From the NCBI GenBank assembly GCA_045615545.1, contig JAZLFA010000040.1:13667-77666 (forward strand): a stretch of DNA of 64,000 nt, given 5' to 3'. A program made the position numbers and the translations under genes. The notes under the pieces were generated by a model that saw only the letters and a list, made by a program, of their open reading frames with translations, did no database searches and had not been told where the DNA came from. This DNA is from Bacilli bacterium. GTDB taxonomy: Bacteria > Bacillota_I > Bacilli_A > RFN20 > CAG-826. Shown here piece after piece: positions 28,335-58,031 of this stretch (position 1 is the stretch's first letter; every line of letters begins with the position of its first letter).

Positions 28335-28736
28335 CTAGATTTTTTTAACAAATGTAACAACATTTTGATTATTAATACGTTCATACTTTATCTCATCAGT
28401 AAGTTTCTTACACATCAAAATGCCAAGACCACCAATATCGCGATCTTCAGCATGAAGAGTGATATCAGGATCTTCTTTTGCGAGTGGATCAAAAGCAAAA
28501 CCAGAATCAATAATTTGATAGGTAAGCGAATTATCAACTAACTCAATAGAAATGTCACATTTGCCTTCTTTGTTTGGATAAGCAAATTTTGCAACATTAG
28601 TAAAAAGTTCTTCCACTACTATATTCATAGACATTAACACCTTCATCTCAACACCAAAAGATTCCAAAGTTTCTTCATTAAAAGATAAAACGTTTGGAAA
28701 TTCATCTAATGATGCAATAAAAGATTGTTTTGCCAT
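28335..28736 (-). CDS. Anti-sigma regulatory factor-type Ser/Thr protein kinase (RsbW/SpoIIAB-like HATPase_c)
   Basis: 133 aa. N-box EELFTNVAKFAY, G1 DSGFAFDP, G2 GGLGI. Confidence 0.7.
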   Translation of the reverse strand: MAKQSFIASLDEFPNVLSFNEETLESFGVEMKVLMSMNIVVEELFTNVAKFAYPNKEGKCDISIELVDNSLTYQIIDSGFAFDPLAKEDPDITLHAEDRDIGGLGILMCKKLTDEIKYERINNQNVVTFVKKI

Positions 28737-28814
28737 AAAACCACCATTATGAATAATCCTAGTAAAAATTGATATTCTTACTAGGCAAAATTCAAAATAT
28801 AATTATCAACAATA

Positions 28815-29111
28815 TTATTCAATATTGAGGATATAAGAGAAGCCAGTCATTTCAAAGATTTCTTTGATAGAATCACTGACATGAATAAGGTTCATTGTAC
28901 CTTGTTTGCTCATTACTTTTTGAGCGCCTAAAATAACACGTAAACCAGCACTTGAAATATATTCAAGATTTGCGAAATCAAATGTTAAATGATTAATTCC
29001 AGGAAGTGATTGATTTAAAACAGTTTCAAGTTCTGGAGAAGTGACTGTATCAAGTCTACCAGTAATAGCAATTGTTAAACTTGTGTCATTTAATTTCTTT
29101 TCAATAGTCAT
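28815..29111 (-). CDS. STAS-domain anti-sigma-factor antagonist (RsbV/SpoIIAA-like)
   Basis: 98 aa from MTIEKK, which has GAGGAAA 7 nt upstream. ITGRLDTVTSPELE carries the conserved phosphorylatable Ser/Thr region. The ORF-track ORF extends to 29138. Confidence 0.7.
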   Translation of the reverse strand: MTIEKKLNDTSLTIAITGRLDTVTSPELETVLNQSLPGINHLTFDFANLEYISSAGLRVILGAQKVMSKQGTMNLIHVSDSIKEIFEMTGFSYILNIE

Positions 29112-29231
29112 AATTATTTCCTCTTTTTTTCTTTTCAATATTATAAATTGAAATTTATTATTTTTCTATTACTTTTTATCATATCAACATATTGAATCAT
29201 TATTTATTGATCAATCGTAAAAATTACAAAT

Positions 29232-29258
29232 AAAAAGCGTAACAAAGTTACGCATTTT
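29232..29258. terminator. Hairpin AAAAAGCGTAAC-aaa-GTTACGCATTTT (bidirectional terminator)
   Basis: Perfect 7-bp GC-containing stem flanked by A and T runs, immediately 3' of the minus-strand tRNA-Ser(GCT). Confidence 0.5.
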
Positions 29259-29265
29259 AATTAAA

Positions 29266-29356
29266 TGGCGGAGCAAGAGAGACTCGAACCCTCGCACCGG
29301 AAACCCGATCTACGTCCTTAGCAGGGACGCCCCTTCACCAACTTGGGTATTGCTCC
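29266..29356 (-). tRNA. tRNA-Ser (anticodon GCT)
   Basis: The reverse complement folds into a class II tRNA with a long variable arm, anticodon loop CTGCTAA, T-loop GGTTCGAGTCTC and encoded CCA. Confidence 0.85.
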
Positions 29357-29406: not shown

Positions 29407-30846
29407 TTAATAAGCTTTTGCAAATAATACAACTTTTGTTGCTTTTTTACCACAAACAGGGCATTTATCATCAAAGCCAATTTGATTAAATGGTATTGCT
29501 CTAGCAGTAGCTTGGAATTTATCTTTAATTGCTTTTTCACAAGCTTCATCTTCACACCACATGACTTTAGCGTATCCACCTTTGACATTTAGGATATAAT
29601 CAAGTTCTTCCATGTTATGTGCTTCTGTAATGTGTTCGAGTAAATATTTATTTGCTTTGTCATACATTTCCTTATGAATAACGCTAAACAATTCTTTAAC
29701 TTTATTTACCAACTCATCATAGCCACAGAATACCTTTTCTCCAGTGTTACGTTTAGCAAGAACGACTTGCTGTTTTTCGATATCTCTAGGACCAATCTCA
29801 AGTCTTAGTGGTACACCCTTCATTTCATATTCAGAGAACTTCCATCCTGGAGTCTTATCACTATCATCAATTTTGACCCTAATACCCGCGCTTGCGAGAA
29901 CTGATGCAATTCTTTTTGCTTCAGGGATGACTCCTGGTTTATTTGCAGCAACAGGAATAACAACAACTTGAATTGGGGCAACAAATGGAGGTAACACCAA
30001 TCCATTATCATCGCCGTGAACCATAATAATGCTGCCTAATAAACGTGTTGAAACGCCCCAACTTGTTTGATGAGGATTTTGAATTTTACCATCACGGTCT
30101 TGAAATGAAATACCAAATGCTTTTGCAAACCCATTACCAAAGTAGTGAGTCGTGCCGCTTTGTAATGCTTTTCCATCTGGCATTAAAGCTTCAATTGTAT
30201 AAGTTTCTTTAGCGCCAGCAAATTTTTCTTTTTCAGTTTTTCTTCCTTTTACAAAAGGAACAGCTAAAATATCTCTGCCTAAATCATCATAAATTTCAAG
30301 CATCTTTAATGTTTCGGTTCTTGCTTCTTCTTCGGTTTCGTGCATTGTGTGACCTTCTTGCCACAAGAATTCTGCTCCACGAAGGAAAGGACGGGTTGTT
30401 TTCTCCCATCTAACAACAGAGCACCATTGGTTGTATAGCTTTGGTAAATCACGATATGAATTAATTATTTTTGCATAATGTTCACAGAACAATGTTTCAC
30501 TAGTAGGACGAATAATTAATTTATCATCAATTTCTTCTCCTCCGCCCATAGTAGCCACTAATGTTTCAGGAGCAAATCCTGCAATATGATCTTTTTCTTT
30601 TTGAAATAAAGATTCAGGGATTACACTAGGCATATAAACATTTTCATGTCCTGTTTCTTTAAATCTAGCATCTAGATATTCTTTAATTCTTTCCCAAATA
30701 GCATAGCCATAAGGTCGATAAATAATAAATCCTTTTACACTGGAATAATCCATTAATTCTGCTTTTTTGCACACATCAGTGTACCACTGAGCAAAATCGA
30801 CACTTTGGCTAGTAATAGCGTCATTCTTTTTCATTTCACTACCCAT
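29407..30846 (-). CDS. proS: Prolyl-tRNA synthetase, archaeal/eukaryotic-like type (no editing insertion)
   Basis: 479 aa class II aaRS with the typical N-terminus FAQWYTDVCKKAELMDY and a C-terminal zinc-binding domain (CPVCGKK). Confidence 0.9.
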   Translation of the reverse strand: MGSEMKKNDAITSQSVDFAQWYTDVCKKAELMDYSSVKGFIIYRPYGYAIWERIKEYLDARFKETGHENVYMPSVIPESLFQKEKDHIAGFAPETLVATMGGGEEIDDKLIIRPTSETLFCEHYAKIINSYRDLPKLYNQWCSVVRWEKTTRPFLRGAEFLWQEGHTMHETEEEARTETLKMLEIYDDLGRDILAVPFVKGRKTEKEKFAGAKETYTIEALMPDGKALQSGTTHYFGNGFAKAFGISFQDRDGKIQNPHQTSWGVSTRLLGSIIMVHGDDNGLVLPPFVAPIQVVVIPVAANKPGVIPEAKRIASVLASAGIRVKIDDSDKTPGWKFSEYEMKGVPLRLEIGPRDIEKQQVVLAKRNTGEKVFCGYDELVNKVKELFSVIHKEMYDKANKYLLEHITEAHNMEELDYILNVKGGYAKVMWCEDEACEKAIKDKFQATARAIPFNQIGFDDKCPVCGKKATKVVLFAKAY

Positions 30847-30857
30847 AATAGTTCCCC

Positions 30858-32630
30858 CTATTTATATTTCTCCGCTAAAGCGGATAAACGATCCATTTTC
30901 TTTTTATCAACAGGTAATATCATATCATTACTTGCTGTAATATTTTCACTAGAAATTACAGAAATTCCACTTTGTATTAATAATTCAATTGCTTGCCAAC
31001 CATCTAAATCGGTAGCGATAATCGGTTTATTGTATTTAAGTAATTGCTCAATTAAAACGTGAACGGATAGTCTAGTTCTACCACTTTGTTTGATTTCACC
31101 AATCATTGAGCTACCAACAACAAAGAAATCGAAATTTAAATAAAATGATGAATCTAAAAGCAAATCACGATTTTTAAGTGATAAGGCCAAAGAATATCCT
31201 TCGTCTCTTAAATCTTTATATATATTTGTTAACACGTCATATCCATCGACATTATCATTAATCTCTTCTTCATCAAAAATTAATACGAGATCACATTCTT
31301 TAATTCTTACTATAGTAGATAATAATTCTTTAATGTGTTTGATATCGAGTAATGACACAGCAAAGAATAATTTATATTTCTTGTTTTTAACAGAATTAAC
31401 AAATTCAGTAATTGCCATTTTAGAGACAACAGAAAATAGTTCTCTATTCTTATCTACTTTCGCGGCATAATTGGCCATTTCTAAGAAGTCTCCCAAAGGA
31501 GATTCGTAAGCTTTGATGTATTCAAAATAGCCCAAAATTGAAGCAGTGTTTATATCCACAATAGGACGATATAAATATCTTAATGAATTTGGTTTTAATA
31601 GATATTCAACATGTTCGTTAATTCTATTAAGGTCGATGAGTGGTCTTGAACTACTTCTTTTAAACAAATAAATTGTTTGATTGTTTTGTTGGGCATAAAA
31701 ACAAGCTTGCTCACTTGCTTCAATGATACCCTCAAAATCTTGGAAATATTGATTGTTTCCAACAATACCAATCGTAAAGTTAATGGAATCTTGGAAACCG
31801 TTAATAACGATTGCTTTACGCATTGACTTTTCAATAGAATTTGCAAGCAATATTGCGCGTTCCTTAGAGTCAATATTTAAATCAAATAATAAAATTTGAT
31901 TGTCTTTGTTATCAATAATTTGACGGCAATGTTTTTGATCTAATGCGAAAGGATAAACATTATTTTTAAGAGAAAGCACCATAAAACGTTCAATCTTTTC
32001 ATTTGTTGTAACAAGTGGCTTTAAGTAATAAAAACGTATTGCATATGTAAATCCTTTAATGGATTTTCTTTTGTTAATCATATCGCTATAAGCAACAGGA
32101 TCAACTAAACCATAACTTTTACTAATATGTTTTGGCTTTTTGCTAACAAAATTGTTAGGGGTTATATATCTGAAAAGATGACTTTCAACATGAATTAAAC
32201 CGGCATTGGAATCGAATTTTAATAAACGGAGAATTGAAAAATAATTATTTTTACCATGATTTGTTATCATATCCGCTTCGATATATTCATCAACATCTTT
32301 ATGATCAATATACATTGAATAAATCCAGTTTTTTACTTTTTCAACATCGCCTTCATGGAAAGAATTGAAAAATTTTGTAAGTGACATCACTCTTTTAACT
32401 TTCAAATTAGTGCGGTCAAAATAGACAACACGGTTTTCTTTTGGATTGATATTTAAAACGCGAACAACATTGGTTTCACGAATAATTTGTTCCGCGATTC
32501 TTGTATCCGTAACAAGGGAATAAATGAAAGAAGCAATTAATCCGATAATAAAAACAATGACCACCAAACAAATGATGAATAAAGTTAAGAAGGGAATATT
32601 ACTAAAGTTCCACAATTCCATAATACACAA
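30858..32630 (-). CDS. Membrane-anchored protein with a catalytically degenerate EAL domain (and possibly a degenerate GGDEF-like middle domain)
   Basis: 590 aa. N-terminal TM (IPFLTLFIICLVVIVFIIGLIASFIY). The C-terminal 250 aa follow the EAL layout: YRPIVDINTASILGYFEYIKAYESPLG against (Y)QPIVDL..G.I.GYEALLRW, LIFDEEEI against LEITE, LRDEGYSLALSLKN against L..LG..IALDDFG, LNFDFFVV against LKIDRSFV, and KPIIATDLDGWQAIELLIQSG against L.VVAEGVET.EQ...L...G. Catalytic residues are replaced. Confidence 0.5.
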   Translation of the reverse strand: MCIMELWNFSNIPFLTLFIICLVVIVFIIGLIASFIYSLVTDTRIAEQIIRETNVVRVLNINPKENRVVYFDRTNLKVKRVMSLTKFFNSFHEGDVEKVKNWIYSMYIDHKDVDEYIEADMITNHGKNNYFSILRLLKFDSNAGLIHVESHLFRYITPNNFVSKKPKHISKSYGLVDPVAYSDMINKRKSIKGFTYAIRFYYLKPLVTTNEKIERFMVLSLKNNVYPFALDQKHCRQIIDNKDNQILLFDLNIDSKERAILLANSIEKSMRKAIVINGFQDSINFTIGIVGNNQYFQDFEGIIEASEQACFYAQQNNQTIYLFKRSSSRPLIDLNRINEHVEYLLKPNSLRYLYRPIVDINTASILGYFEYIKAYESPLGDFLEMANYAAKVDKNRELFSVVSKMAITEFVNSVKNKKYKLFFAVSLLDIKHIKELLSTIVRIKECDLVLIFDEEEINDNVDGYDVLTNIYKDLRDEGYSLALSLKNRDLLLDSSFYLNFDFFVVGSSMIGEIKQSGRTRLSVHVLIEQLLKYNKPIIATDLDGWQAIELLIQSGISVISSENITASNDMILPVDKKKMDRLSALAEKYK

Positions 32631-32735
32631 TTATAAAAGAAAGTTATCGATATTTCTATACGATAATTTGCCTATATATCAATACCTATGATGATTTTCA
32701 CTTATTCTCAGAAAATTGTGATATAATTTATGGCT

Positions 32736-32826
32736 GGAAAGGTACTCAAGTGGCCGAAGAGGGCAGTTTCGAAAACTGCTAGGAGATGCAAGTCTCGCGT
32801 GGGTTCAACTCCCACCCTTTCCGCCA
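32736..32826 (+). tRNA. tRNA-Ser (anticodon CGA)
   Basis: Class II tRNA with anticodon loop TTCGAAA, long variable arm, T-loop GGTTCAACTCC and encoded CCA. An extended -10 (TGTGATATAAT) lies just upstream. Confidence 0.85.
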
Positions 32827-34013: not shown

Positions 34014-34841
34014 ATGGTCGTATTACGTGCAATTGGAAGATTCTTCGCCCGTATCGGACGTTGGATTAGAGACACAGCTTGGGTTCAACCACTATTAATC
34101 GTTGGTGGTATCTTTGCAATCATCTTCTCTATCCCTTATATTACAAAATGGGTTCAAAGTTGGTTTGCTGGATCAAACGAAGCTGATGCTTATTATGAAA
34201 GATTCAAACTTTCTCTTGATGGAGCAAAAGAACAAAAGAGCGAAGCTGATAAATTATTTAAATACATGCTTGGCGATGTTACCGATCAAGAACAAAAAGA
34301 ATACAAAAATAGATTTGGTGAAAAATTCTTTATCGCTTTTGTAGAAAAAGGCTGTGCTGGTTGCGAAACTGCATATACAGGTTTTGAAACATTACAACAA
34401 CAATGGAACAGCGATGACTTTAAAGTTGAAGATGGTGAAACATTTAAATTATTCACAATCTTTGTTGATACAGTTGATGAAAATGATAAGGATGCCAACT
34501 TATTCAAGAAATATTTCTTCGGCACTCATTACGATCAATACTTCGAAGAAGTTTCATACGCTATGACACAATCAGACTATTACACAAACAAAGGCGGGGA
34601 TAGTTCTTCTTATGCAAGTGAACTTGAAACAATCATTGATGAAGATAAATGGGCTGCTCCAGTCTTCATGCTTGTTGATTTCAACAAAGTTTGTCCACAA
34701 GTTAACTCTTTAGGTGTTACAGAAGTCTTATTCTCAGTTGATGGAAAAGGTGGCAAAACCGATTCTGTTGCTAAAGCAAGAACATTATATGACTGCTGGA
34801 CATATAACGATATCTTCTCACCTGATTACAAGAAAGACTAA
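34014..34841 (+). CDS. Hypothetical membrane-anchored protein with a CxxC motif
   Basis: 275 aa. N-terminal signal-anchor helix, then an acidic extracytoplasmic domain containing GCAGCE. Confidence 0.4.
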   Translation: MVVLRAIGRFFARIGRWIRDTAWVQPLLIVGGIFAIIFSIPYITKWVQSWFAGSNEADAYYERFKLSLDGAKEQKSEADKLFKYMLGDVTDQEQKEYKNRFGEKFFIAFVEKGCAGCETAYTGFETLQQQWNSDDFKVEDGETFKLFTIFVDTVDENDKDANLFKKYFFGTHYDQYFEEVSYAMTQSDYYTNKGGDSSSYASELETIIDEDKWAAPVFMLVDFNKVCPQVNSLGVTEVLFSVDGKGGKTDSVAKARTLYDCWTYNDIFSPDYKKD

Positions 34842-41367: not shown

Positions 41368-41459
41368 CGCAAAAATAGTTTAGTGTATTACTATGAGATA
41401 ATCAACAATAGTTGAAATCACCTAGTTATTTTTCTAATATATTTATTGAGGTAATTTTT

Positions 41460-42467
41460 ATGAGTGAAAAGATTCTTACAGGTATTAAACCGACTGGCCA
41501 ACTTACTCTTGGTAACTATTTAGGTGTGCTTAAACATCTTCCAGAAATGATGGATAGAGGTGAATGCTATATCTTTATCGCTGATCTTCACGCTCTTACA
41601 TTACCAATCGAACCTGAAGTATTAAGACAAAACAGCATCGACATTGCTTGCTTTTATTTAGCAGCAGGACTTGATCCAAAAAGAGTAACGCTATTCTTAC
41701 AAAGCAGCGTTTCAGCACACGCTGAACTCAACGCCATTATGCAAAACTATATGTATATGGGTGAACTTAGCAGAATGACTCAGTTCAAAGATGTTTGTGC
41801 TAAATTAAACTTATCAAAAGATGCAAAAGATTCCCATGTTGGCTTAGGTATATTCGCTTATCCTGTTCTTATGGCGTGCGATATTGTTTTATATGACGCT
41901 AATATCGTTCCTGTTGGTGCGGATCAATCTCAACATGTTGAGTTATGTCATGATTTAGTTAATAGATTCAATCATAAATATGGCGACATTCTAACGATGC
42001 CAAAAGCTGAAAATCAAAAAGTTGGCGCTAGAATTATGTCACTTAGTGACCCAACTAAAAAAATGAGTAAATCTGATCCAAAAGGAGATATCTTCCTTAA
42101 AGATGATTTAGCGATTGTTCGTAAAAAGATTATGTCTGCTGTTACTGATATGGGAAACGAAATTAAATTTGATCCAGAAAATAAACCTGGCATATCAAAC
42201 TTATTAACAATTTATGCAGCAACCAAAGGAATCTCAATCGAAGAAGCAGAAAAACAATTTGTTGGTTTCCGTTATGGAGACTTTAAGAAAGCTGTTGCGG
42301 ATGCGGTAGTTGAAGACTTAGGTGCCTTCCAAGAAAGATATAAAAAGATCCTTGAATCAAAGGCTTATGTTGAAGTCTTAAAACAAGGAGCAACCAAAGC
42401 AAACATAGTTGCAAATAAAACACTTAAACGTGTTAAAGAAGCTGTCGGTTTACTTAGTATCGATTAG
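41460..42467 (+). CDS. trpS: Tryptophanyl-tRNA synthetase
   Basis: Start taken at MSEKILTGIKPTG, which has a GAGGT RBS. HIGH-like TGQLTLGNY, KMSKS, and GADQ motifs. Confidence 0.9.
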   Translation: MSEKILTGIKPTGQLTLGNYLGVLKHLPEMMDRGECYIFIADLHALTLPIEPEVLRQNSIDIACFYLAAGLDPKRVTLFLQSSVSAHAELNAIMQNYMYMGELSRMTQFKDVCAKLNLSKDAKDSHVGLGIFAYPVLMACDIVLYDANIVPVGADQSQHVELCHDLVNRFNHKYGDILTMPKAENQKVGARIMSLSDPTKKMSKSDPKGDIFLKDDLAIVRKKIMSAVTDMGNEIKFDPENKPGISNLLTIYAATKGISIEEAEKQFVGFRYGDFKKAVADAVVEDLGAFQERYKKILESKAYVEVLKQGATKANIVANKTLKRVKEAVGLLSID

Positions 42468-43642: not shown

Positions 43643-44917
43643 TTAATTTTTAAGACTTGTTATTGGCACTACATATACGCCATCGTTTCTTCTATAAGCA
43701 GCGTTAGTTAAACCACAAATGACGCATAGCTGCCTAGCTGGTTTGCCACCTTTTTTTTCAATATTTTTATTTAAAGCAATAAGTTTTAAAGCGGCATCAT
43801 CAATTTGATTGGCGCCTAACTTAATTTCAAATGCACACCAAGAACCATCTTCAAGTTCAATCACAGAATCAATTTCGTTATTTTCGTAATCTTGGTAATG
43901 AAATAACTTTCCTCCAAAAGACTCAGCATAAGTTAATAAATCTCTCTGAACAAGTGATTCAAACATAAATCCTAATAAGTCTAAATTATTCAACAACTTT
44001 TCATGCGATAAATTTAATAAAGCACATGGTAAAGAAGGATCAACAAAATGCCTTTTTTCGCTTTGCTTAACTCGAATAGAAGACCTAATGTTTGAAGAAA
44101 AAGGAGGTATATTTTCTAGTATATATAAATTATTAAACAAATTTAGATAATCAGTAATTGTATCAACATCAATATCATGTGAATCTTTTTCTATAATGTC
44201 TCTTTTCAAAGTTGTATTTGTCACAGTTGTACATTCGTTTCTTGCTAGAGATTTTAGAAGTAACTCAATTTTGTGTTTATCTCTTTTTATATCATCAACT
44301 TTAAAAATATCTTCATTAATTACAGATTTAATGTATTCTTTACTAACTAACATACCTCGTTTAACATCTAATTCTAGTGTTGCGGGCCACCCACCGACGA
44401 CAATACAATCGATAATATCATTTATATCTACTTCATTAAGATAAACATCTTTTGCTTTTCCATAACATATATCAAGCAAAGAAATTTCACCTTTTGATTT
44501 ACCGCTCTCATATAAAGACATTGGCCTCATTTTTAAACGAGCTATTCTGCCGGTTCCAGTATGAATGTATTTATTCTTATTTATTGTCGCAGAACCAGTT
44601 AATATAAATTGCCCTTTTCTTGGATCTGAATCAACCTTCCCTCTAACGGCATCCCAAATTAAAGGTGCTTCTTGCCATTCATCTATTAATCTAGGAAAAT
44701 TACCATCCAGTATAAGGTATGGATTCATTAAAGCTAATTTTTTATTGTTAAAATTTCCTTTTGGATCAGATAACATAACTTCGCTATTAGAATTATTTTT
44801 GCTTGTCCATGTTTTTCCACACCATTTAGGACCTTCAATTAAAATAGAAGAAAATGTTGTAAGATAGAAACTTATCTTTTCATCTATTATTCTTTGCTTG
44901 TAATTTACTAATTTCAT
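43643..44917 (-). CDS. AAA-family ATPase (AAA_14) with C-terminal DUF4143 domain (putative PD-(D/E)xK nuclease fold); paralog 1
   Basis: 424 aa. Walker A GPKWCGKT, Walker B-like LILDGNF.LIDEWQ, and C-terminal EIDSVIELEDGSWCAFEIKLG (D...ExK pattern). Confidence 0.7.
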   Translation of the reverse strand: MKLVNYKQRIIDEKISFYLTTFSSILIEGPKWCGKTWTSKNNSNSEVMLSDPKGNFNNKKLALMNPYLILDGNFPRLIDEWQEAPLIWDAVRGKVDSDPRKGQFILTGSATINKNKYIHTGTGRIARLKMRPMSLYESGKSKGEISLLDICYGKAKDVYLNEVDINDIIDCIVVGGWPATLELDVKRGMLVSKEYIKSVINEDIFKVDDIKRDKHKIELLLKSLARNECTTVTNTTLKRDIIEKDSHDIDVDTITDYLNLFNNLYILENIPPFSSNIRSSIRVKQSEKRHFVDPSLPCALLNLSHEKLLNNLDLLGFMFESLVQRDLLTYAESFGGKLFHYQDYENNEIDSVIELEDGSWCAFEIKLGANQIDDAALKLIALNKNIEKKGGKPARQLCVICGLTNAAYRRNDGVYVVPITSLKN

Positions 44918-46426: not shown

Positions 46427-47713
46427 TTAATTTTTTAAACAAGCAAGAGGGACTTCATAAACTCCATCTTCTCTCTTTAAAGCAGCTACTCCTTTAGTTA
46501 TAACCATTAAAAAAGCAGGTTTTCCAGTTTTTTCTTTATCAATATCGTTGGAAATTTTAATTAATTTTTTTGCTGCCTCATCAATATCTTCTTGATCAGT
46601 AAGTTTGACTTCGATTAATGCCCAACTGCCATCTCTAAATTGAATAACAGCATCTGCTTCGCGATCCATTTGATCTTTATAATGATAAACATTTGCTCCA
46701 AAAGTATCACAGTATATTCTTAAATCACGAATTGCTAATGATTCAAACAAAAATCCAAAAGTATTCATATCACTAAATAACCCTTTTGGACCAATCCCAA
46801 GTGAAGCGGCCGCAATAGAAGGATCAACAAAATGTCTAGTATTTTTTGATCTAATTGAAACTTTGCTTCTTAGATTAGGATTCCAAGCCTCCAATTCCTC
46901 TACAACATATAGTCTTTTAAGAGCAAGTAAATACTTCTCAAATGTTTTTACATCAAAAGAATTATCATTAGATGCAACATCATTTACAATGACACTATCT
47001 GCGCACTGAGATCCAATATTTCTTGAATATGAACGCATTATTTTTTTTGCTTTATTTACATCTTTTCTTATTTTAATATCTTTTAGTGAAAATAAATCCT
47101 CATTTACAACAGCATCATAAAAATCTATAACTTGTTGTAATGCAACATCTTTTTCTTGATTAATTGATAATGGCCATCCGCCACGACAAATATAATATGT
47201 GTAGTCTTCAATTGTTTTATTAGATAAACATGGTTCAAATATGCCTTCTTTTAAATTAAGTAACGAAACTTTTCCGTTACTATCTCCGCTTTCAAACAAA
47301 GACATAGGTCTCATCATTTTTCTCACAATTCTTCCTGCACCAGTATGCCTTTCGCCATTATTCTTTGAAATGGTTTTATCGGTAATACTTCCTGTTAATA
47401 TAAATTGTCCAAAAGATCCGCTCTTATCAACTTGGTCTTTTATAGAATTCCAAATAAAAGATATTTCCTGCCATTCGTCTATCATAAGTGGTTTTTCACC
47501 TTGTTGCAAAAAAATAGTTGGCGAAGCTTTTGCCAAATCAATATATTGTTGTTTTGTTTCTTCTATTGTTAAATCGATAATAGTTTTTGCTTGTCTAGCT
47601 GAAGTTGTTGATTTGCCACACCATTTAGGGCCAACCACCAATACAGCTCCTTTTGATTTAAGCGAAAATCTTAACGTTTCATCAAACAATCTTGGTATAT
47701 AATTTTTTTCCAT
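46427..47713 (-). CDS. AAA-family ATPase (AAA_14) with C-terminal DUF4143 domain; paralog 2
   Basis: 428 aa. Walker A GPKWCGKS, MIDEWQ, and C-terminal EADAVIQFRDGSWALIEVKLT. About 40-45% identical to paralog 1 by eye. Confidence 0.7.
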   Translation of the reverse strand: MEKNYIPRLFDETLRFSLKSKGAVLVVGPKWCGKSTTSARQAKTIIDLTIEETKQQYIDLAKASPTIFLQQGEKPLMIDEWQEISFIWNSIKDQVDKSGSFGQFILTGSITDKTISKNNGERHTGAGRIVRKMMRPMSLFESGDSNGKVSLLNLKEGIFEPCLSNKTIEDYTYYICRGGWPLSINQEKDVALQQVIDFYDAVVNEDLFSLKDIKIRKDVNKAKKIMRSYSRNIGSQCADSVIVNDVASNDNSFDVKTFEKYLLALKRLYVVEELEAWNPNLRSKVSIRSKNTRHFVDPSIAAASLGIGPKGLFSDMNTFGFLFESLAIRDLRIYCDTFGANVYHYKDQMDREADAVIQFRDGSWALIEVKLTDQEDIDEAAKKLIKISNDIDKEKTGKPAFLMVITKGVAALKREDGVYEVPLACLKN

Positions 47714-55844: not shown

Positions 55845-57872
55845 CTAATTATTAGTTAATTCTTCCTCGTGGGAGAATTTTTTTCTATATATATAGCCAC
55901 CAATGCCAAAAACAACAACACTTCCCATACCAACATAAAAGAATGGTTCTAATATTCTAAATGTTTTTGTGCGTTCAAACTTAACATTAAGTGTGTATTC
56001 ACCTTTTGGAAGTTCAAAGCTCACTAATCCATCTACATTTGTACCGCTAACCACCTCGTCATTAAAATAAGCAAAATAGCCATCTTGATAAAATTGTGGT
56101 AACTGCACAAGTGCAGTATCGCTTGTAACATTCGCGCTAAAAGTAACATTAGGTGTATTTAATTCAGTAATAGTAAGTTCTCCATTACCACTAATAAAGG
56201 CAGGGTTTATATATTCTTCCATTGTGTATATAAAACGCGAATATGAACGTACGCGATTAAAAATATTGTTATATAAAGAGTTTTCGGCTGGAACATATCC
56301 ATCTTGATAGAAAACTTGTGGAACCATTTCATTTTGAGCCCCGCTATAATAAATAGTCTTAAGCCAATCTTCGTCAGCTACTTGATATAGACCAATATCA
56401 TTTTCATAAGCTTCTCTTTTTTCAAATATAGGCATTGATAAAAGAATAAAGAATGAAGCAATAACACCACTAATTGCATAAGTGTATTTATATTGTTTGA
56501 GTTCATTTATAACAATTAACGCCAAGTAGAATAAGAAGAAATATAAAAACCCAAATAATCTCCACGCAAATTGCGCACTATAGAAAACTGATGGAACAAA
56601 TTTCCACGCATCTCCAATAAAGATAAAAATTAAATTAATGATTATGCCAAAACAACAAAAATATATATCAGGATTTTTATATAACTTATCTTTAGTTATC
56701 GATACATCTTTATCTTTCTTTTTACTTCTAAATAAACAAATAAGTACAAAACATATATAACCAATTAATAAGGCGAAATAAAATTCACCTCTTTGCCAAA
56801 AGATTGCAGGAATTAAAAATAACACCACAAAATCAACAATATAACGATAATATTTATTATTTGGACACTTCTTAATAAAGCAATCGACGACATACATTAA
56901 AGCAAAGCAAATAAAATAAAGGAATAATCCAAATAACAATAAAGAGACTTTACTTGCTGTATATGGCGTTCCGAAAATCCAATACCAATTTAAAAAGCCA
57001 GAGAATGTCGCACTAGTTAAAGTTGATTGAGATACGTGATCAAAATTCGTCCACATTGCAACACTATCGCTTAAACGGAAGATGTTCATTCCTTGTGTAT
57101 GTAATGCAAGTGAAACATAAAACATTACTGAGATGCCAATAATTAATGCAGATATTGCTAAGTTAAGCGAAACATGTTTCCAACGTTTATAAATAATGAT
57201 TTTATATAAATTAATAATAATATAAATTCCACCAAAAATAGCGCTCATTAAAGCGGTAAATGGATGAGACAAAATTATCAAAACAGCTCCAACAATTAAA
57301 CATACATAAGGTGCAACATAATAACGATCATCATTAATGATTCGATACGCAGCATAAAACACCATTGGAATAAAGCTTAATGCTATTGTCTCGCTATACG
57401 CCTGACGGCATATTCCACAGAAGACTCTATATGGTAAGAAAATATAAAATACTGTGCAAATTACTGACAAAACAACATTCTTTTTACTAATTTGCATACT
57501 AAATAGATATGCGAATATCCCACTAACAATCGTGGTTAGCATAATCATTGTTTTATAAGCGCCAATGCTATTTGCCCCAGCACCAGAAAAGATAAATTGA
57601 ATCACCGCTGCAGCGTAGTGTGGGAAAGGCCCATAATAGCCATAATTATCAAGAGCAAAAATACCAAAAAATGTATGGTTAGTTGATAGTCTCCAATAAC
57701 CTTTTTTAAAAGATAAATAAAGATCTTCAATTTGCGCCAAATGAAAAACACGGTCATCGCCACTAGTGATACCATTAAATAGCAAAGTATATGCAGAAAA
57801 AATGCTTGCAAAAATAATAATTATCCATGGTAAGGAACGCAAAAATATATTCTTAAAATTAATATTTTTCAT
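55845..57872 (-). CDS. Large polytopic membrane protein, YfhO/PMT-like GT-C fold glycosyltransferase candidate
   Basis: Start moved to MKNINFKN so the ORF no longer overlaps tRNA-Leu. About 14 TM helices, a DD motif in the first extracytoplasmic loop (SGDDRVFH), a roughly 200-aa C-terminal extracytoplasmic domain and a final TM. Confidence 0.4.
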   Translation of the reverse strand: MKNINFKNIFLRSLPWIIIIFASIFSAYTLLFNGITSGDDRVFHLAQIEDLYLSFKKGYWRLSTNHTFFGIFALDNYGYYGPFPHYAAAVIQFIFSGAGANSIGAYKTMIMLTTIVSGIFAYLFSMQISKKNVVLSVICTVFYIFLPYRVFCGICRQAYSETIALSFIPMVFYAAYRIINDDRYYVAPYVCLIVGAVLIILSHPFTALMSAIFGGIYIIINLYKIIIYKRWKHVSLNLAISALIIGISVMFYVSLALHTQGMNIFRLSDSVAMWTNFDHVSQSTLTSATFSGFLNWYWIFGTPYTASKVSLLLFGLFLYFICFALMYVVDCFIKKCPNNKYYRYIVDFVVLFLIPAIFWQRGEFYFALLIGYICFVLICLFRSKKKDKDVSITKDKLYKNPDIYFCCFGIIINLIFIFIGDAWKFVPSVFYSAQFAWRLFGFLYFFLFYLALIVINELKQYKYTYAISGVIASFFILLSMPIFEKREAYENDIGLYQVADEDWLKTIYYSGAQNEMVPQVFYQDGYVPAENSLYNNIFNRVRSYSRFIYTMEEYINPAFISGNGELTITELNTPNVTFSANVTSDTALVQLPQFYQDGYFAYFNDEVVSGTNVDGLVSFELPKGEYTLNVKFERTKTFRILEPFFYVGMGSVVVFGIGGYIYRKKFSHEEELTNN

Positions 57873-57946
57873 AGAAAAATTATAAGTGTTTACAATTGTG
57901 CTTGTCAAAGAATAGTATTTTATTTTAGAATAAAGGGCACAAAGTT

Positions 57947-58031
57947 GCGCGAGTGGCGGAACTGGTAGACGCGTACGTTTGAGGGGCGTATAAGGAAACT
58001 TGTGTGAGTTCAATTCTCATCTCGCGCACCA
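57947..58031 (+). tRNA. tRNA-Leu (anticodon GAG)
   Basis: Class II tRNA with acceptor GCGCGAG/CTCGCGC, anticodon loop TTGAGGG, long variable arm, T-loop GAGTTCAATTCTC and encoded CCA. Confidence 0.8.

Follow-up and report, generated by a model that had tools for sequence, protein, structure and literature searches.

The usual annotation for proteins with degenerate GGDEF and EAL domains is phosphodiesterase or c-di-GMP receptor. LapD of Pseudomonas fluorescens and FimX of Pseudomonas and Xanthomonas carry such a dual degenerate module, keep the xxLxR core and bind c-di-GMP (PMC10333796, PMC3032553), with R450 at the centre of the LapD binding site (PMC3032553). For dead EAL domains, the ExLxR motif has been described as determinative for c-di-GMP binding, and in CsrD of E. 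coli the replacement of the motif Leu by Met, giving ExMxR, is on its own reported to abolish binding (PMC10333796). CsrD is a membrane-anchored gammaproteobacterial protein with dead GGDEF and EAL domains that acts independently of c-di-GMP and targets the sRNAs CsrB/C by way of RNase E. YdiV/STM1344 and STM1697 are stand-alone soluble enterobacterial EAL domains with diverged signature motifs; they neither hydrolyse nor bind c-di-GMP and act by protein-protein contacts (PMC10333796).

Here we describe a protein family that is a clade-wide counter-example to the usual annotation. Its member in the window, the 64-kb stretch of DNA analysed here, is encoded at 30858..32630 on the minus strand, and we refer to both gene and protein as X. 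With 317 clusters at 50% identity the family is large, and it has kept its fold well while losing the known catalytic and binding motifs. On balance, we favour the reading that X is a non-enzymatic descendant of the PAS-GGDEF-EAL proteins, acting without c-di-GMP as a sensor or scaffold, and that its gene lies in one operon with proS, the prolyl-tRNA synthetase (ProRS) gene. The features of the locus are as follows.

29237..29253, minus strand: terminator-like hairpin followed by a T-run, 3' of the tRNA-Ser(GCU) gene
29266..29356, minus strand: tRNA-Ser(GCU), directly 3' of proS (ARAGORN, Rfam)
29407..30846, minus strand: proS, second cistron, encoding a 479-aa archaeal/eukaryote-like class II prolyl-tRNA synthetase (Pfam tRNA-synt_2b, HGTP_anticodon, ProRS-C_1)
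30847..30858, minus strand: X-proS junction with an 11-nt spacer; the GGGGGA Shine-Dalgarno sequence of proS begins on the last base of the X stop codon
30858..32630, minus strand: listed ORF X, with a TTG start (590 aa) and the stop codon TAG at 30860-30858
30861..31625, minus strand: EAL-derived TIM-barrel domain, aa 336-590 (Pfam EAL; alignments to Lmo0131 and PA3825)
31656..32099, minus strand: GGDEF-derived domain, aa 178-325, with KDNQI in place of GGDEF (family profile against PDB; Foldseek)
32166..32468, minus strand: PAS-fold domain, aa 55-155, with conserved F71, F87, W102, E118 and I-H-L-E-S at 146-150
32517..32597, minus strand: single N-terminal transmembrane helix, aa ~12-38 (helix H12-52 in the model; the stalk continues to aa 52)
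32630..32658, minus strand: promoter-like site in which 17 nt separate TAGAAA from TATAAT, with 8 nt between the -10 box and the ATG at 32621
32736..32826, plus strand: tRNA-Ser(CGA), divergent from X, with a ~105-nt promoter region common to both (ARAGORN)

Domain architecture and fold of X

The 590-aa ORF and its 11-nt distance from proS, both given in the earlier note, were confirmed (stop TAG at 30860-30858, proS ATG at 30846). Since the TATAAT box ends at 32630, translation probably begins at the in-frame ATG at 32621-32619, which would yield 587 aa. Homologues of 585-592 aa that begin with MEWW or MKWF support this start. Some family members are annotated 'putative c-di-GMP-specific phosphodiesterase class I'.

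X is built of one transmembrane helix followed by a PAS, a GGDEF-like and an EAL-like domain. The AlphaFold model (pLDDT 93) is closest in fold to PAS-GGDEF-EAL proteins. The single N-terminal helix named in the earlier note is present in the model, and a hydrophobic N-terminal stretch occurs in 130 of 131 members. Across these 131 members, lysine plus arginine residues average 1.1 before the helix and 4.1 within 15 aa after it; the topology is therefore N-out, C-in. This leaves an external tail of ~15 aa. The PAS domain, which the earlier note missed, comes directly after the stalk helix, and aa 55-155 form a five-stranded antiparallel sheet with flanking helices.

The earlier note had also proposed that the C-terminal region follows the EAL layout and that the middle loosely resembles a degenerate GGDEF domain, to be checked by Pfam searches and structure prediction. 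Both proposals were supported. Pfam EAL (PF00563) matches aa 345-558 at profile positions 8-227 of 236 (E = 1.3e-8), scoring 35 bits against a gathering cut-off of 31.3, and is found in 39 of 69 family members. Foldseek comparison of the model with EAL domains gave TM(target) values of 0.65-0.77. Pfam GGDEF (PF00990), by contrast, does not match X even at E <= 10 and matches only 1 of 69 members. It was the family profile and the fold that placed the middle domain: a profile search against PDB retrieved the GGDEF-EAL structures PA0575 (3.5e-8) and FimX (1e-7) as well as DosP, with alignments covering their GGDEF part, and Foldseek superposed the model on structures of this kind. A single-sequence phmmer search against PDB gave nothing useful; the relationship showed only with the family profile. 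The middle domain of X appears to be homologous to GGDEF, beyond the reach of Pfam. By information content, constraint is highest in the EAL-like domain, together with PAS, and lowest in the GGDEF-like domain. The motif LxEKLLKYxKPII forms a conserved helix (aa 517-533) preceding the seventh strand of the EAL-like barrel. E528 and E549 are also among the conserved residues of this domain.

Among described proteins, RbdA/PA0861 and DosP share the domain order of X and match it best in structure when PAS, GGDEF and EAL are taken together, but they are active phosphodiesterases with intact EAL motifs, whereas X has no catalytic residues. CsrD resembles X in its membrane anchor, its dead GGDEF and EAL domains and an EAL motif unfit for c-di-GMP. 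However, CsrD-family proteins are built as GAPES4-HAMP-dGGDEF-dEAL, with a periplasmic GAPES4 domain and a HAMP-like module where X has one transmembrane helix and PAS, and no sequence relationship extends past the common domains. GdpP/YybT of Firmicutes has a membrane anchor, a PAS domain and a degenerate GGDEF domain, followed by an active DHH/DHHA1 c-di-AMP phosphodiesterase. This N-terminal order, in Gram-positive bacteria, is similar to that of X, whose C-terminal part is instead a dead EAL barrel. LapD is likewise a membrane protein and, with FimX, appears among the fold and profile matches of X. LapD-family proteins, however, have two transmembrane helices flanking a periplasmic LapG-binding output domain, plus HAMP, and FimX is a soluble protein that begins with REC-PAS. 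YdiV/STM1344 and STM1697 share the EAL fold and the loss of signature motifs with X, but are single soluble domains rather than a four-module Bacilli membrane protein.

Catalytic and c-di-GMP-binding residues

The substitutions quoted in the earlier note are all present: FEY at 369-371 for EAL, SLKN at 484-487 for DDFG and TDLDG at 540-544 for E(G)VE. When X is aligned by profile with Lmo0131 and PA3825, two active EAL enzymes, these substitutions fall at the canonical positions, and the metal and catalytic residues are replaced by F369, F423/V425, I451, S484-L485, V504 and T540. Across the family (n=131), the E of EAL is F, L or I, the N is hydrophobic, the metal-binding Glu is V, L or I, DD is S, L or I, K is I, V, F or L, the first E of EGVE is T, S, I or N, and Q is S. 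The one exception to this wholesale loss is E454, the second Glu of ExxE in the PA3825 register, which is kept in 96/131 members. None of the 131 diverse homologues has the catalytic EAL residues. Similarly, GG[DE]EF is absent from all 131 aligned members and all 311 family proteins, and the GGDEF-derived domain of X has no metal-binding Asp. With neither GG[DE]EF nor the EAL metal and catalytic residues, X has the hallmarks of neither an active diguanylate cyclase nor an active EAL phosphodiesterase. These data indicate that X is a pseudoenzyme, predicted from its residues to be unable to make or hydrolyse c-di-GMP.

The residues used for c-di-GMP binding are missing as well. Neither ExLxR nor the relaxed [EKQ]x[LM]xR is found in the aligned region of any of the 131 members; X itself reads FEYIK, the Arg position is occupied by K, E, T, V or R in the family, and the Q of the QP motif has become R in 74/131. 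X thus lacks the ExLxR/xxLxR of LapD/FimX-type EAL receptors, and the xxLxR core that LapD and FimX keep is absent throughout the family. The RxxD I-site of PelD/PopA-type GGDEF receptors is present in 4/131 members and absent from X.

The surroundings are equally poor in c-di-GMP genes, as the earlier note had said of the window. No GGDEF, EAL, HD-GYP or PilZ domain was detected in the other window ORFs of at least 150 aa, no GG[DE]EF or DDFG in a six-frame translation of the window, no c-di-GMP riboswitch in the window and no GG[DE]EF in 742 kb of related loci. Loss of the binding motifs is not by itself proof against c-di-GMP binding. Taken with the surroundings, it nevertheless suggests that X is probably not a c-di-GMP receptor.

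The predicted X-proS operon across the clade

The earlier note also placed X in an operon with proS. The 11-nt junction, the overlapping Shine-Dalgarno sequence and adjacency in relatives, whose junctions are likewise short with GGAG-type sites, all support this placement. On the upstream side, no Shine-Dalgarno sequence precedes the X ATG at 32621. With the -10 box ending only 8 nt before that ATG, the X mRNA is probably leaderless, with transcription predicted to start on the A of this codon or 1-2 nt ahead of it. Relatives show the same arrangement: of 104 loci, 65 have a perfect TATAAT 6-10 nt ahead of the ATG, 15 more have a 5/6 match, and only 5 have an SD-like motif. The unit is bracketed by two tRNA-Ser genes. 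A divergent tRNA-Ser(CGA) lies <=350 nt upstream of X in 86 of 96 loci, and tRNA-Ser(GCU) follows proS in 65 of 85 loci with X but in none of 37 without it. The transcription unit probably ends with this tRNA-Ser(GCU) gene. Together, these features strongly indicate that X is the first cistron of a predicted leaderless operon, X-proS-tRNA-Ser(GCU).

While the earlier note called the link to proS unusual, the link is in fact invariant and clade-wide. proS lies directly downstream of X in 83/83 genome loci, and the adjacency holds in four families that are only 20-24% identical and differ in their outer flanks. Approached from ProRS, X is present in 20/20 loci with a ProRS identity of at least 68%. 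In the ProRS tree, a single split parts all 99 X-bearing from all 35 X-less sequences, with no loss of X seen within the carrier clade. These data strongly indicate a single origin of the operon, within an uncultured clade of Bacilli from gut and rumen, and no broken copy was seen. We found no EAL-proS link in the literature.

Among the best 150 of the 317 clusters, nearly all are full length (560-630 aa) down to 20% identity, and almost all have an intact reading frame with all four modules. This uniformity indicates that X is a functional gene and is not decaying. X evolves much faster than ProRS (20-74% versus 60-85% identity). ProRS has equal length in X-bearing and X-less genomes, without clade-specific indels. 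Only four positions discriminate the two groups, all conservative hydrophobic changes, and a clade-specific docking surface on ProRS is therefore not supported.

Possible functions of X

In the reading that we favour, an ancestral PAS-GGDEF-EAL signalling protein would have lost its catalytic and binding residues while keeping its fold. The N-terminal helix would anchor X in the membrane with the three domains in the cytoplasm, and X, probably a dimer, would act independently of c-di-GMP, as CsrD and YdiV do. PAS may serve as the input, the EAL-like barrel with the LxEKLLKYxKPII helix as the output or interaction surface, and the GGDEF-like domain mainly as a spacer. An operon that was never seen broken suggests that proS expression would depend on the X promoter, and our working view is that the link to proS is operonic, through a shared promoter and presumed translational coupling. 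The apparent leaderless start illustrates how an essential synthetase gene can become dependent on an upstream accessory gene.

The earlier note likened X to c-di-GMP receptors of the LapD, FimX or YkuI type, with a protein-interaction scaffold as the alternative. A receptor whose dead EAL domain binds c-di-GMP and relays a signal from the membrane would fit the dual degenerate module, the membrane anchor, the LapD and FimX matches and the polar residues kept on the old active-site face. Given that one L-to-M change is reported to abolish binding in CsrD (PMC10333796), however, a family without ExLxR, with a variable Arg position, no I-site in X, no periplasmic or HAMP module like that of LapD and no other c-di-GMP genes or riboswitch in the window makes such a role quite improbable; the scaffold alternative is compatible with the evidence. 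The same polar residues, E454, D/E456, D501, S560 and S561 at the C-terminal strand ends, lie in the most constrained domain, and a small-molecule site could persist there. Hydrophobic residues occupy all the former metal-site positions (F369, F423, I451, L485, V504), which suggests a remodelled pocket. That X is a repurposed enzyme or binder of a new, non-c-di-GMP ligand is still highly doubtful, as no catalytic constellation is recognisable and searches of Pfam, NCBIfam and PDB matched it to no other family of enzymes. At the other extreme, X could be a functionless relic retained only since its 5' end carries the promoter needed by proS. Loss of all signature motifs and fast evolution would suit a relic, but stops, truncations and deletions would then be expected; the intact clusters, the very confident model and the many strongly conserved positions make this very improbable indeed.

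The unbroken pairing amid changing flanks is stronger than in most operons and could reflect a direct functional link. If X were a dedicated partner that tethers, regulates or senses ProRS at the membrane, or serves tRNA supply, the obligate gene pair would be explained. Tight junctions suited to translational coupling, the position between two tRNA-Ser genes and dead EAL proteins with protein or RNA partners (YdiV-FlhDC, CsrD-CsrB/C; PMC10333796) are in line with this. We consider it unlikely, because dependence of proS on the X promoter is enough to explain the linkage, ProRS shows only the minor differences described above, no X-ProRS fusion occurs among the best 150 of the 317 clusters, and the probable lack of a leader on X, next to a strong proS Shine-Dalgarno sequence, argues against equal stoichiometry. 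The more specific proposal that X is a membrane-bound regulator or adaptor for ProRS or for Pro/Ser-tRNA supply, in the role of a T-box leader, is rather unlikely. If the direct link were true, two so far separate fields would be joined, and X would be the first c-di-GMP-module pseudoenzyme wired to an aminoacyl-tRNA synthetase. The unbroken pairing with an essential translation gene offers a hypothesis that can be tested in these uncultured Bacilli of gut and rumen.

Several regulatory arrangements were considered for the operon. Proline-codon attenuation through X was rejected, as X contains only 2.5% proline and no proline cluster. A T-box leader precedes proS in some related Bacilli; it was detected in 2/12 X-less relatives tested and 0/7 X loci, counts that lend little weight to X as its replacement. 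Palindromes lie over the -35 region. They were considered as a repressor operator, but may instead simply reflect the divergent promoters of X and tRNA-Ser, whose elements would lie back to back.

A degenerate GGDEF-EAL protein

The open reading frame at 30858..32630 (-), here called X, is real, and an in-frame ATG at 32621 (587 aa) is a more likely start than the listed one. Pfam EAL matches X at aa 345-558 with 35 bits (curated cut-off, 31.3 bits); the match spans profile positions 8-227 of 236, nearly its full length. A profile of 131 X family members matches solved GGDEF-EAL tandems across the middle and C-terminal parts, including PA0575 (E = 3.5e-8), FimX (E = 1e-7), DosP and LapD. An AlphaFold2 model from the 131-member alignment was very confident (pLDDT 93.1, pTM 0.82) and resolved four modules:

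aa 12-52, long TM/stalk helix
aa 55-155, alpha/beta domain
aa 178-325, GGDEF-like domain
aa 336-590, EAL-like barrel

The earlier note had missed a PAS domain in X. K+R is 1.1 before the TM helix and 4.1 after it, indicating that the three domains are cytoplasmic.

Exhaustive searching of 1.84 billion representatives gave 317 X clusters. Nearly all have 560-630 aa and align with the query over its full length, at identities as low as ~20%. The family is old and its architecture fixed. Its members are confined to gut, rumen and digester Bacilli of one uncultured clade, and its TM-PAS-dGGDEF-dEAL architecture is a distinctive trait. Selection acts on the gene: in nearly all listed clusters the reading frame is uninterrupted and encodes the four modules. 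By information content, the EAL-like domain ranks first (1.69 bits/position, 45 strongly conserved positions), followed by PAS (1.66), the GGDEF-like domain (1.24) and, last, the linkers. The barrel retains conserved polar residues (E454, D/E456, D501, E528, E549, S560 and S561), and the most conserved stretch is LxEKLLKYxKPII (aa ~526-538). This pattern suggests that PAS may serve as the input and the EAL-like barrel as the output, with the GGDEF-like domain a putative spacer.

The substitutions reported in the earlier note are present: FEY (369-371), SLKN (484-487) and TDLDG (540-544) fall on the EAL, DDFG and EGVE positions when the family profile is aligned to the active Lmo0131 and PA3825-EAL. 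Its claim that every signature is substituted needs correcting, because E454, one Glu of the ExxE motif, is retained.

Residues at canonical EAL positions in 131 aligned X family members
E of EAL: F/L/I/Y, never E
R of EALxR: K32, E18, T12, V12, R11
N of the EAL domain: hydrophobic
Metal-binding Glu: V/L/I
DD: L/S/I/R and L/I/V
Catalytic K: I/V/F/L
First E of EGVE: T/S/I/N
Q of the EAL domain: S in 107
Q of the QP motif: R in 74

Among the same 131 members, none has GG[DE]EF in the GGDEF-like domain, only 4 have RxxD in the I-site region, and none has ExLxR, even relaxed, in the EAL region. In the wider X set, only one cluster had hits to the ExLxR pattern, and these fell in its PAS domain. 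A recent review regards this motif as determinative for c-di-GMP binding by the inactive EAL domains of FimX, LapD and Erwinia CsrD; E. coli CsrD has ExMxR and does not bind c-di-GMP (PMC10333796). In LapD, the Arg of ExLxR lies at the centre of the binding site (PMC3032553). Judged by its motifs, X is dead and probably blind to c-di-GMP. Whereas LapD and FimX bind c-di-GMP and carry ExLxR, the X family lacks the motif and thus appears nearer to CsrD and YdiV, whose action does not involve c-di-GMP. The family probably belongs among the c-di-GMP-independent GGDEF-EAL pseudoenzymes. The dead GGDEF-EAL protein proposed earlier therefore stands, but its suggested role as a c-di-GMP receptor is not supported, given the lack of ExLxR. 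The alternative role named there, a scaffold for protein interactions, may still apply.

Pairing of X with proS

The most notable feature of X is its link to proS. The unit and its flanks are arranged as follows:

32736-32826 (+), tRNA-Ser(CGA), divergent; the terminator of a yitT-like gene also lies upstream of X
30858..32630 (-), X, with stop TAG at 30860-30858
29407..30846 (-), proS, encoding an archaeal/eukaryote-type prolyl-tRNA synthetase (ProRS; Pfam tRNA-synt_2b, HGTP_anticodon, ProRS-C_1)
29266-29356 (-), tRNA-Ser(GCU), followed by a terminator

The X stop lies 11 nt from the proS ATG at 30846, and a ribosome-binding site, GGGGGA, begins on the last base of the TAG. proS was directly 3' of X on the same strand in 83/83 X loci, mostly from representative genomes of different species, with X 27%-74% identical to the query. 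Four X families with just 20-24% identity to the query again have proS next (gap 3-14 nt), with both outer neighbours unlike the window's and unlike one another's. Conversely, 80 metagenome loci were selected by ProRS without regard to X. X was upstream in all 20 with ProRS identity of at least 68% and sufficient upstream sequence; at 60%-67% the outcome was mixed (6 with X, 41 without). In relatives without X, the genes upstream of proS are unrelated, often encoding a ~1000-aa ATPase, apparently SbcC-like by its N-terminal P-loop sequence, and 2/12 tested (L153, L158) have a T-box leader before proS. In a neighbour-joining ProRS tree, all 99 distinct sequences with X fall on one side of a single split and the other 35 on the opposite side, indicating that the pairing arose once; no loss or separation was seen among these sequences. 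We found no report of such an EAL-protein/proS pairing in the literature searched.

Does X act on ProRS? The unusually strict conservation of the pair, and its place among translation genes, would fit a direct link. However, no positive evidence for one emerged. ProRS is of equal length in genomes with and without X and shows no clade-specific indels. Only four positions tell the two groups apart, all conservative hydrophobic changes, and no X-ProRS fusion occurs among the best 150 of 317 clusters. We consider a direct link unlikely. Dependence of the essential proS on the only upstream promoter is sufficient to explain a pair that is never broken.

Two contigs of one MAG (SI.B22.metabat-bins.159; L061 and L068) each carry an X-proS pair, which points to a genuine duplication or to a bin of mixed origin. 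The window's ProRS (P0312) is present at 100% identity in a collection of 5.8 billion proteins and its X is absent; the closest X there is 74% identical (~50% for the best genome representative), so the source species is poorly represented.

Probable promoter and flanking tRNA genes

In the window, no Shine-Dalgarno sequence precedes the ATG at 32621. A promoter-like TAGAAA-17-TATAAT lies 8 nt ahead of this ATG, with its last base at 32630. The listed TTG start overlaps the -10 box. Among 104 loci of relatives, 65 have a perfect TATAAT 6-10 nt (mostly 7-8 nt) before the X ATG, 15 more have a 5/6 match, and only 5 have an SD-like motif. The position of TATAAT and the missing SD suggest that X mRNA is probably leaderless; for proS, in contrast, the junction provides a strong SD. 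The invariant, apparently leaderless operon with proS is a distinctive trait of the family. Attenuation through X was rejected, since X contains no proline cluster.

tRNA-Ser(CGA) is divergent upstream of X in 86/96 loci, and tRNA-Ser(GCU) follows proS in 65/85 X loci versus 0/37 loci without X. Bracketed in this way, X and proS form a conserved module of four genes. The window's tRNA-Ser(CGA) was found by ARAGORN and is missing from the Rfam gathering-threshold scan, which lists its counterparts in related loci.

AT-rich inverted repeats lie over the -35 region of the X promoter (~32649-32672, -) and vary by sub-clade (examples from relatives: L004, L021, L037, L003):

ATTATCG-N8-10-CGATAAT, window and L003
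AAATTTGAC-N9-GTCAAATTT, upstream of X in relatives
TTATGAAT-N7-ATTCATAA, upstream of X in relatives

Such repeats may act as an operator or may reflect the divergent promoters of X and tRNA-Ser, whose elements would lie back to back.

Other genes in the window

The remaining ORFs of at least 150 aa are housekeeping genes, among them priA, gmk, pfk, def and those for ATP synthase, RNase J and a class I W/Y synthetase. GGDEF, EAL, HD-GYP and PilZ domains are absent from all of them, and no frame of the window contains GG[DE]EF or DDFG, bearing out the earlier statement that no further c-di-GMP genes are evident. The window has two aminoacyl-tRNA synthetase genes, proS and the class I W/Y type, and no T-box leader. 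Other features were:

28335-29138 (-), STAS (anti-sigma antagonist-like) and HATPase_c_2 (anti-sigma kinase-like) proteins after the proS unit
41412-42467, class I W/Y-type synthetase
43643-44917 (-) and 46427-47713 (-), paralogous AAA_14/DUF4143 ATPases, ~1.5 kb apart
55845-58013 (-), 722-aa ORF without Pfam match
34014-34841 (+), 275-aa protein without Pfam match

No sigma factor gene adjoins the STAS/HATPase_c_2 pair in the window; in the closest relative, L003, the pair is likewise found after proS. The TTG of the 722-aa ORF overlaps the opposite-strand tRNA-Leu(GAG) (57947-58031), so its true start is probably further in. The 275-aa protein has a hydrophobic stretch at the N-terminus and contains the CxxC-type motif CAGC; its gene adjoins coaD and the yitT-like gene, a position kept in relatives (L001, 3797-4615).
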